Source: Clostridia bacterium
Lineage (GTDB): Bacteria; Bacillota; Clostridia; Christensenellales; CAG-917
DNA length: 64,000 nt
Reading direction: 5' to 3'
NCBI GenBank assembly: GCA_036654095.1
Contig: JAVVSR010000001.1
Coordinates: 159,987 to 223,986 of the forward strand
Within the stretch, counting starts at the first letter, position 1. Every line of letters starts with the position of its first letter. The notes beneath the pieces are model-generated. The model did not search any database and had not been told where the DNA came from. It worked only from the letters and a program-made list of their open reading frames with translations. Position numbers and translations under genes: made by a program. Below, piece after piece: positions 48,307 through 49,915 of this stretch.

Positions 48307-48330
48307 ATTTTATAAAACAAATTATTTTTT

Positions 48331-48357
48331 ATGCGCCAAATTATTGGCGCATTTTTT
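48331..48357 (+). terminator. Rho-independent terminator after rny
   Basis: ATGCGCCAA-ATTA-TTGGCGCAT followed by a T-run. Confidence 0.8.
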
Positions 48358-48698
48358 ATTGCCTTAAACATAAATAAAAAATATAATTTTAAGTATTTAT
48401 AATAGTTGTTATTGCGTTGTTAAAATCACTTAAAACACTTTGCACAGTTTTTTTAAATTAAAAATATAAATGGTTTACAATAAAATTTTTATTGTTTTAA
48501 ATTAAAAAATAAATTACAAAATTCGATTTTATACAATTTAATCACTTTTAATATAAGTATAGATTTAAAATAAATTGTAATTATATATCTGTCGCAATTT
48601 TTTAATAACTAGAATAGAATATATTAGTAAGTTGAATTAAAAAAATATTTGCTATAAAATTTATTCAAACTATTAAATTTATATTGAGGAGAAATACT

Positions 48699-49067
48699 AT
48701 GGCTGAAAATAATAAAGATAACGTTGTCGGTGAAGACCAAACCTGTCCAACTGTTGGATATCAATCAGCTTCAATCTGCGTACCTGTAACCGTAACACCG
48801 TTTGCAAAAACAGGGGCTACTAGCACTAAATGCTGCGGAATGCCTATTGTTATTTCAGGGCGAAATACTTGTGGCGGTGTTAAAAATGGTACTTGCTTTT
48901 TTACAATTAGCCAAGATATTTGCGTTGCTGTTCCTGTTGTATTCGGAGCGGTTGCCTCTGTCGGCGATACTTTTGTAAGTTGCAACGGCGCATCGTCTGA
49001 TGATATTTGTTCAAACTGTGAAAAAATAATTGAACCATTACCAAGTGTTCCAACTAATAATGTATAA
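48699..49067 (+). CDS. Uncharacterised cysteine-rich small protein A (10 Cys in 122 aa)
   Basis: GAGGAG at 48686-48691 followed by ATG at 48699. No signal peptide or TM helix. It shares the core FAKxGxxSTKCCGxPxV...NGxC...IxQxxC..xP with the next ORF. I do not recognise the family. Confidence 0.65.
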   Translation: MAENNKDNVVGEDQTCPTVGYQSASICVPVTVTPFAKTGATSTKCCGMPIVISGRNTCGGVKNGTCFFTISQDICVAVPVVFGAVASVGDTFVSCNGASSDDICSNCEKIIEPLPSVPTNNV

Positions 49068-49072
49068 ATATT

Positions 49073-49375
49073 ATGGAAAATCATTTGTCAAATTGTAATG
49101 ATGAAAATTCGACTTGCACAAGTATTTTTTCGCAATTTGAAGATGTAAGTGTTGCAATAAAACTAAATACTTTTGCAAAACTAGGCGATTTATCCACGAA
49201 ATGCTGCGGAGAACCAACAGTTTGTGTTAATTGTTGTAAAAGAACAAATGGTTTATGTGGCTATGAGATTGTTATTACGCAAACAGTTTGCACTAGAATA
49301 CCTATCGAGTATTGTACCTGCGCTGATATTTCGTCAACAACAGTAAACTGCGATGATTGCAATAACTGTAAATAA
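49073..49375 (+). CDS. Uncharacterised cysteine-rich small protein B (14 Cys in 100 aa), paralogue of protein A
   Basis: ATG lies 5 nt after the stop of protein A with no obvious SD, so coupling is possible. It aligns with A over about 65 residues (TFAKLGDLSTKCCGEPTV against PFAKTGATSTKCCGMPIV). Confidence 0.6.
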   Translation: MENHLSNCNDENSTCTSIFSQFEDVSVAIKLNTFAKLGDLSTKCCGEPTVCVNCCKRTNGLCGYEIVITQTVCTRIPIEYCTCADISSTTVNCDDCNNCK

Positions 49376-49564
49376 ATTCATTATTGAAGCTATGAACTTT
49401 TTAACTTTAGTATTGTAAATTATTTTAGTCGTAGTCATAAAATTAAAAATATTAATAAATAGTATTAAAAATTATTTATTTTTTATCATAATGAAAAAAT
49501 TACAATAGAAATATATCATTTGAAATAATAATGCTAATATTATATTAAACCGATAAATTGAATT

Positions 49565-49597
49565 AAAAAACCCTACTTAATCAAGTAGGGTTTTTTT
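49565..49597. terminator. Bidirectional terminator shared by the Cys-rich gene pair (+) and the tRNA operon (-)
   Basis: AAAAAA-CCCTACTT-AATC-AAGTAGGG-TTTTTTTT, abutting the 3' end of tRNA-Tyr. Confidence 0.8.
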
Positions 49598-49762: not shown

Positions 49763-49915
49763 ATATTAATAGACCAATGTAAAAGGGCGCACATATGGTC
49801 AAACTTTTAAAAAGTCACCGTTAAGTGACTGGAAACTCACCGAGGAGCTTTACGTAATAAACAATTAGGGCAAAATAAAACCCTCGCGTCTGTTCATCAC
49901 CTTTTAGCACCTTAA

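Follow-up and report, generated by a model that had tools for sequence, protein, structure and literature searches.

What are the two small, very cysteine-rich proteins that are encoded side by side next to the spoIIA locus of this Clostridia bacterium? Their genes, here called A and B, lie on the forward strand of the 64,000-nucleotide stretch of contig JAVVSR010000001.1 that was analysed (the window). Gene A (48699-49067) encodes 122 residues, 10 of them cysteines (8%), and gene B (49073-49375), which follows after a gap of 5 nt, encodes 100 residues, 14 of them cysteines (14%). A preliminary description made from the letters alone had proposed that the pair are disulfide-linked building blocks of the spore envelope, and its coordinates, strand, gap and cysteine counts are borne out by the sequence. 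The computational evidence presented here supports that proposal through a sigma-K-type promoter, the absence of signal peptides and a set of C-terminal fusions: with a probability of roughly 60%, we consider that A and B are made late in the mother cell and form, within the outer envelope of the spore, a structural or anchor module cross-linked by disulfides.

A BLASTP comparison aligns A and B over 108 columns with 33% identity (E 6e-16), which indicates that they are true paralogues, as had been noticed, with a similarity far beyond chance. A second high-scoring segment pair (HSP) matches the C-terminal half of A with the N-terminal half of B. The extra cysteines of B are found at its N- and C-termini, and the protein ends, as described, in CDDCNNCK. 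Homologues of A form more than 300 clusters (62-83% identity), labelled 'hypothetical protein', in metagenome-assembled genomes and isolates of Clostridia. For A and for B alike, the proportion of nonsynonymous differences (pN, 0.17-0.43) is far below that of synonymous differences (pS, 0.65-0.84), so both genes are under purifying selection. The possibility that the open reading frames (ORFs) are spurious, which the preliminary description had raised, can therefore be set aside, as relatives are numerous and pN is far below pS.

The family to which the pair belongs is unnamed. Pfam scans of A and B gave no match even at E ≤ 10, scans against NCBIfam and PHROGs gave nothing (thresholds E ≤ 10 or E ≤ 1), and profile searches of Protein Data Bank sequences with A1 and A4 returned no match, in agreement with the first impression that no recognised family is involved. 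There was also no consistent match in a Pfam scan of 132 family members, and none in a full-text literature search with three family peptides. When A and B were combined in one alignment and its profile was searched exhaustively, 879 relatives, counted as representatives of 50%-identity clusters, were retrieved at E ≤ 1e-3, and 460 of them reached E ≤ 1e-10. The species distribution comes from a pattern scan in which each GTDB species was represented by one genome; relatives were confirmed there in 171 stretches, and the family is present in at least 171 Clostridia species. The carriers include Oscillospiraceae, Lachnospiraceae, Anaerovoracaceae, Christensenella, Agathobaculum, Negativibacillus, Pseudoflavonifractor, Anaerotruncus and Hespellia, and all named hosts of the family are Clostridia, a class to which it appears to be confined.

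Genomes that bear A span 32-66% GC. Both the GC content of A-type genes (37-68%) and that at third codon positions (17-90%) track the flanking DNA (r = 0.94); the high identity of the proteins thus reflects constraint rather than recent transfer, and the family genes are long-term genome residents. A mobile or phage origin was rejected, as no relatives were found in viral contigs or plasmids and gene GC follows host GC. Nine cysteines of A are invariant (C16, C27, C45, C46, C66, C75, C95, C104 and C107) and C58 is nearly so, the protein having a CC pair and a C-terminal CxxC, and conservation is uniform along the domain, with no leader/core pattern.

B is far less constant than A. A word-indexed search with B returned only B itself, and B-type proteins are mutually 28-51% identical. 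In roughly 12 out of 80 loci A is followed directly by a B-type gene, with an ATGA overlap or within 25 nt, and most genomes have A without B. B is thus a fast-diverging partner of a conserved A. Other tandem pairs consist of a fusion protein followed by a B-like gene, or of a 106-aa member followed by a 287-aa two-domain member. Examination of the gene neighbourhood, which the preliminary description had suggested together with the phylogenetic distribution, revealed no conserved neighbour across the roughly 80 loci apart from B. In a Lachnospiraceae locus, a gene for a CspB-type germination protease (CspB_prodomain and Peptidase_S8; L001 10974-12387 and L002 8583-10005, minus strand) is located about 4.5 kb downstream of an A+B pair; it was not seen in other loci.

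To which class of promoter do these genes respond? Of 72 aligned, non-redundant regions upstream of A-type genes, 54 contain the motif AC-N15-17-[CA]ATAnnnT[AG]; shuffles averaged 3.5 and never exceeded 9. Its strict CATA form with a 16-17 nt spacer is found in 34 of the 72 (0.9 in shuffles). The motif is usually located about 32 nt before the ATG, with the consensus aGGAACC...gGCATAgaATG, and is strongly associated with the family, occurring at 52/72 (72%) of its genes versus 17/657 (2.6%) of the other long ORFs at the same loci (Fisher p = 8e-48). A sigma-K-type motif also precedes two distant family members. In C. difficile, a -35 element of AC rather than ATA separates sigma-K from sigma-E promoters (PMC3789822). 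As the -35 element of the family is AC and not ATA, the motif places the family promoter in the sigma-K class, from which coat and exosporium genes are transcribed late in the mother cell.

The motif comes in two forms. Most loci with A only have the proximal form, GGAAC-N16-17-GCATAnnATG, instead of the distal variant (G)TGTCA(C/T)-N14-15-CATAnnnT(A/G), which is found at -86 to -103 from the ATG in most loci with a B partner (L005, L015, L072, L031, L029 and L009, with a 5′ untranslated region of about 70-90 nt). In the window, the best upstream match to the position weight matrix is a candidate at 48590-48621 on the forward strand (TGTCGC, 17 nt, AATAGAATA), with a -10 box that begins 86 nt upstream of the A start codon, in the same register (-86) as the distal variant of related A+B loci. 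Its score is 7.0, versus 6.0 for the 95th percentile of shuffles. Because each box has a mismatch and the score is barely above shuffles, the sigma-K assignment for the window copy itself is weak.

Two other promoters had been read in this region. The sigma-A-like site TTGAAT-17-TAAAAT (48632-48660, forward strand) is present, but it matches at 9/12 positions and sigma-70-like sites are not in excess here (12 vs 9.0 ± 2.8 in shuffles), which agrees with the earlier judgement that it was not compelling. The weak SigE-like -10 element is not above chance, and the candidate at 48590-48621 fits the relatives better. Separately, a conserved hairpin, AATGGCnnnnGCCAGAAAGGAG, lies about 10-30 nt 5′ of the A start, between the -10 box and the ribosome-binding site, in a number of loci (L008, L010, L011, L013, L018, L020, L028, L050, L056 and others). 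It would sit at the extreme 5′ end of the mRNA, where a stem-loop may help to stabilise a late transcript that is highly expressed. The hairpin is missing from the window copy.

None of 145 family representatives has a signal-peptide-like N-terminus, and neither has A or B. A transmembrane segment is likewise absent from the 145, save for one apparently chimeric sequence. The preliminary description was right in finding no signal peptide, transmembrane helix or CxxCxxCxxxCP motif in the pair. The sole hydrophobic stretch of A, ICVAVPVVFGAVASVG (Kyte-Doolittle 1.88), is not regarded as a transmembrane helix, because it is the repeat equivalent of a non-hydrophobic strand.

Longer proteins make up about a quarter of the representatives listed, and in most of them the family domain is C-terminal. 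The passengers in front of it include DUF11/CLIPPER domains (four repeats in P0245, a single DUF11 in P0155 and P0190), FctA/Spy0128-type isopeptide pilin domains (P0198, P0179 and P0207) with SpaA alongside FctA among the pilin-type partners, Chlam_PMP beta-helix repeats (P0226, P0204, P0187, P0216, P0229 and P0241), a Cthe_2159 carbohydrate-binding beta-helix (P0257), ubiquitin-like domains (P0167 and P0192) and a cysteine-bearing domain of about 160 residues (P0177 and similar proteins). In Clostridium aceticum, F-Anchor-3 consists of DUF4183, four DUF11 domains and a CsxA-like domain, and its DUF11 stalk is predicted to be inserted in the CsxA exosporium lattice via the latter (PMC12357932). 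P0245 is similar in having four DUF11 domains without a classical secretion or sortase signal and a cysteine-rich terminal domain, and differs in that its insertion domain is of another family and DUF4183 is missing. Surface-type passengers that lack secretion or sortase signals and are joined to a cysteine-rich terminal domain thus follow the logic of F-Anchor-3.

Two cases among the longer proteins are worth describing in their own right. The subgroup with the N-terminal domain of about 160 residues (P0177, P0161, P0178, P0237, P0219, P0264, P0205 and P0244, about 260-317 aa; loci L089 10001-10864 and L091 10001-10906) shares the pattern LPF.I.LD...S.L.P..G..QRFCY...GC.GLKF.F.L...VC..GG, without a Pfam match. 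In size and cysteine count the P0177-type proteins are CsxA-like, whereas the sequence of the family domain they share, the part that was compared, is not; the idea that these two-domain relatives of about 290 aa are CsxA was rejected on comparison with the CsxA, CsxB and CsxC sequences. In P0134 (227 aa), the first 82 or so residues are A-type and are in frame with the C-terminal part of a P-type (heavy-metal-type) ATPase. It is probably a chimeric contig or a frameshift and not a genuine fusion.

The proteins themselves are built from a repeat. Profiles of the N- and C-terminal halves match each other over 34 columns in hhalign (probability 82.6%, E 9.6e-6), which shows the domain to be a tandem duplication of a module of about 40 residues with conserved cysteine and glutamine. 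In A, module 1 comprises residues 14-47 (48738-48839, forward strand; QTCPTVGYQSASICVPVTVTPFAKTGATSTKCCG), as delimited by hhalign and the second HSP between A and B, and module 2 comprises residues 64-97 (48888-48989, forward strand; GTCFFTISQDICVAVPVVFGAVASVGDTFVSCNG), as delimited by hhalign. The module takes the form C-x5-Q-x3-(I/V)-x-(V)P(V)-...-A-x2-G-x5-C, and C16, P29, P34, C45, C66, Q72, P79 and C95 are nearly invariant across the superfamily. Q22 is also nearly invariant, and Q72 is invariant in alignment A3. [quoted passage not shown] A and B are predicted to be small all-beta proteins. AlphaFold2 monomer models were poor, with a predicted local distance difference test (pLDDT) of 45.6 and a predicted template modelling score (pTM) of 0.22 for 39 A-type sequences; those from 132 diverse members were better but still poor (pLDDT 68.7, pTM 0.33, no DSSP elements). 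Covariation in the presence or absence of cysteines was uninformative for disulfide pairing.

How do A and B compare with the spore-envelope proteins that are already characterised? CsxA/CsxC, CdeC and CsA/CsB are cysteine-rich proteins of the SPOCS/DUF3794 fold in the exosporium or parasporal layers of C. sporogenes/botulinum and relatives (PMC7333573; bioRxiv 10.64898/2026.09.03.749163), and CsxA/CsxC and ExsY/CotY exemplify a general strategy of cysteine-rich self-assembly (PMC7333573; bioRxiv 10.64898/2026.09.03.749163), with which the role proposed for A and B agrees. Extraction of CsxA needs harsh reduction (2 M DTT at 95 °C). Like CsxA/CsxC, A and B are cysteine-rich, clostridial, predicted to be beta-rich and without a signal peptide, and they presumably self-assemble in the mother cell with disulfides. 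Unlike them, they have 100-122 aa rather than 273-299 aa and are derived from the duplicated C..Q..C module. The sequences of CsxA, CsxB and CsxC were taken from the PMC4942563 supplement, and hhalign gave the family profile a probability of at most 0.2% against any of the three. PF12673 (SipL/SPOCS) matched 0/132 family members and DUF7852 likewise none; the positive control, CsxC, matches DUF7852 (7.8e-17) and, weakly, SipL (8.7e-4). Three traits of the SPOCS group are seen here, namely the richness in cysteine, the lack of a signal peptide and the sigma-K motif, the last as motif evidence that is weak for the window copy. The SPOCS fold is a beta-barrel of two three-stranded sheets that forms an intertwined trimer, and a two-fold repeat such as that of A and B would be compatible with a two-sheet barrel.

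Ena1A/Ena1B, which form the S-Ena of the Bacillus cereus group, are likewise two small tandem cysteine-bearing paralogues of about 100-125 aa with terminal cysteines free for inter-subunit disulfides, made in the mother cell as A and B would be; their cysteine pattern is different, A is usually found without B, and the hosts are Clostridia and not Bacilli. Ena subunits are jellyrolls and F-ENA subunits have a DUF4183 head, with an N-terminal connector or hook; B-type proteins have additional cysteines at the N-terminus. ExsY, CotY and CotZ of the Bacillus exosporium and crust are paralogous, cysteine-rich, self-assembling outer-layer proteins, as A and B may be, and are described in the literature as sigma-K-dependent and disulfide cross-linked (PMC7333573); A and B differ from them in sequence, size and taxonomic range. 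DUF3992 (Ena, PF13157), DUF4183 (F-ENA) and PF10612 (CotZ) were found in neither A, B nor the 132 relatives. Because there is no profile or Pfam match, A and B are judged to be outside the Csx, Ena and ExsY/CotY families by sequence, although they would work in the manner of the known cysteine-rich envelope proteins. Homology to a characterised family, a further check that had been proposed, was accordingly not found in the curated libraries or in the comparison with CsxA/B/C.

Since A and B belong to an unnamed family of spore-forming gut Clostridia with a promoter of the late-coat type, they most likely serve as components that build or anchor the outer surface of the spore. We propose that A and B would be co-transcribed from a sigma-K-type promoter and synthesised in the mother-cell cytoplasm late in sporulation, without a signal peptide, and would then be laid down on the outer spore envelope, be it coat, exosporium or appendage. 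The duplicated module of about 40 residues would self-associate, and inter-subunit disulfides would lock the assembly. A would act as the conserved scaffold or anchor subunit, and B, the fast-evolving partner with additional terminal cysteines, as a cap, adaptor or cross-linker. Because the family domain is C-terminal to adhesin- and pilin-like domains elsewhere, it would probably also plug passenger proteins into the envelope layer.

Several observations weigh against this proposal. The functional evidence for A and B is computational throughout, the sigma-K-like candidate of the window has one mismatch per box, and there is no sequence link to a characterised coat or exosporium protein among CsxA/B/C and the curated libraries. 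No coat, collagen-like or glycosyltransferase neighbours are conserved across the loci. Several of the carrier genera are described as non-sporulating. Finally, between bacterial families A retains an identity of about 70%, a degree of conservation that is surprising for a coat or surface protein, since such proteins usually evolve fast. A bolder extension of the proposal is offered tentatively, as a possibility that we do not favour: the duplicated C-x5-Q...C module would define a new fold family, and in Oscillospiraceae, Lachnospiraceae and related bacteria of the gut this family would be the principal scaffold-and-docking system for the spore's outermost layer. In that system A would build, B would modulate and the C-terminal domain would display adhesin- and pilin-like passengers, and the invariant glutamine may join a thioester or isopeptide cross-link in addition to the disulfides.

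The other explanations that we considered all rank below the spore-envelope role. The nearest of them is a variant that differs in supramolecular form: the pair would build an appendage of the endospore (a fibre or pilus of the Ena1A/Ena1B kind) and not a coat or exosporium sheet. The arrangement as tandem small cysteine-rich paralogues is that of ena1A/ena1B, the terminal cysteines that B has in excess could be connectors, FctA and SpaA are pilin-type fusion partners, and F-ENA fibres occur on Clostridia spores (PMC12357932). A fibre is nevertheless rather unlikely, with no match to DUF3992 or DUF4183 at E ≤ 10 and with B missing from most genomes that carry A. The preliminary description had kept open a metal-binding role, which we extend to soluble redox proteins of the sporulating cell (zinc, Fe-S, metallothionein-like or a thiol buffer). 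Ten cysteines, nine invariant and one nearly so, with a CC pair and a C-terminal CxxC, would suit such a protein, and a few of the 132 members give marginal zinc-ribbon or ZZ matches (E 0.002-0.7). These matches, however, are sub-threshold and limited to one or two members, and A and B themselves match no ferredoxin, rubredoxin, metallothionein or zinc-finger family and lack CxxCxxCxxxCP. The junction of P0134 with a P-type ATPase fragment would be suggestive, but that protein looks like a chimeric contig. The beta-strand-like pattern, the repeat and the use of the domain behind adhesin and pilin stalks also fit poorly with a soluble metal carrier, and we regard this explanation as improbable.

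A role unconnected with sporulation, such as that of a vegetative surface or stress protein, would make the promoter likeness a coincidence or the mark of another sigma factor of the extracytoplasmic function (ECF) type. The window copy has no clean sigma-K box, some carrier genera are regarded as non-spore-forming, and sporulation genes are not conserved as neighbours. In contrast, in 72% of the family genes, compared with 2.6% of control genes, both boxes and the spacing of the motif agree with sigma-K, proteins displayed at the surface although they have no signal peptide are characteristic of assembly in the mother cell, and the named carriers are all Clostridia, so that this explanation seems more improbable still. 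Least credible is that A and B are precursors of bacteriocins or of large ribosomally synthesised and post-translationally modified peptides (RiPPs), a RiPP role being the other alternative kept open by the preliminary description. They are indeed small, cysteine-rich, tandem paralogues, but no modifying enzyme, transporter or immunity genes are conserved nearby, conservation extends over the whole protein, and the family domain is fused behind large passengers. As conserved modification and export genes are missing, a RiPP role is very unlikely.

Around the pair, the gene order is recA, rny, A, B, six tRNA genes on the minus strand, spoIIAA, spoIIAB, sigF, spoVAC/AD/AE, yunB and pheS. The presence of spoIIA, sigF, spoVA and yunB indicates that the host is an endospore former, as the preliminary description had concluded from sigF, spoVA and yunB. 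The flanks are indeed AT-rich (392 bp on the left, 48307-48698, and 222 bp on the right, 49376-49597; 16% GC), with A at 40% and B at 33% GC against a window mean of 35.6%; what had been seen as an AT-rich pocket is, however, ordinary intergenic DNA bounded by terminators. On the left, the intrinsic terminator of rny (48331-48352, forward strand) borders the A/B transcription unit. On the right, a bidirectional terminator (49565-49596), a 14-bp hairpin with A-runs and T-runs, serves the A-B unit on the plus strand and the convergent tRNA operon on the minus strand. An Rfam scan of the flanks for non-coding RNA gave no match. A is preceded by a good ribosome-binding site, GAGGAG (48686-48691, forward strand), 7 nt 5′ of its ATG. 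B has none of its own and starts 5 nt past the A stop, and its translation is therefore probably coupled to that of A. Within the otherwise tight cluster of six tRNA genes there is a gap of 153 nt between tRNA-Thr and tRNA-Phe (49763-49915, minus strand), in which neither ARAGORN nor Rfam found a match.

The spores of commensal Clostridia are important for human-to-human transmission, and their surface proteins are poorly known. The papers on clostridial spore envelopes drawn on here deal mainly with C. difficile and with members of the C. sporogenes/botulinum group. Cysteine-rich spore-surface proteins are already known as a functional class; the family itself is new, with no entry in Pfam or NCBIfam, and its conservation equals that of housekeeping proteins. 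The family provides a candidate outer-layer scaffold for the spores of commensal Clostridia that is testable in cultivable carriers such as Hespellia stercorisuis DSM 15480, which has both A and B, Negativibacillus massiliensis, which has A only, and Pseudoflavonifractor phocaeensis, and a candidate modular C-terminal 'address tag' for the display of adhesin-like domains on spores. If the proposal is correct, the family would serve as a metagenome marker of sporulation capacity and as a handle for spore-surface display, and would represent a further independent case of cysteine-rich self-assembly in spore envelopes.

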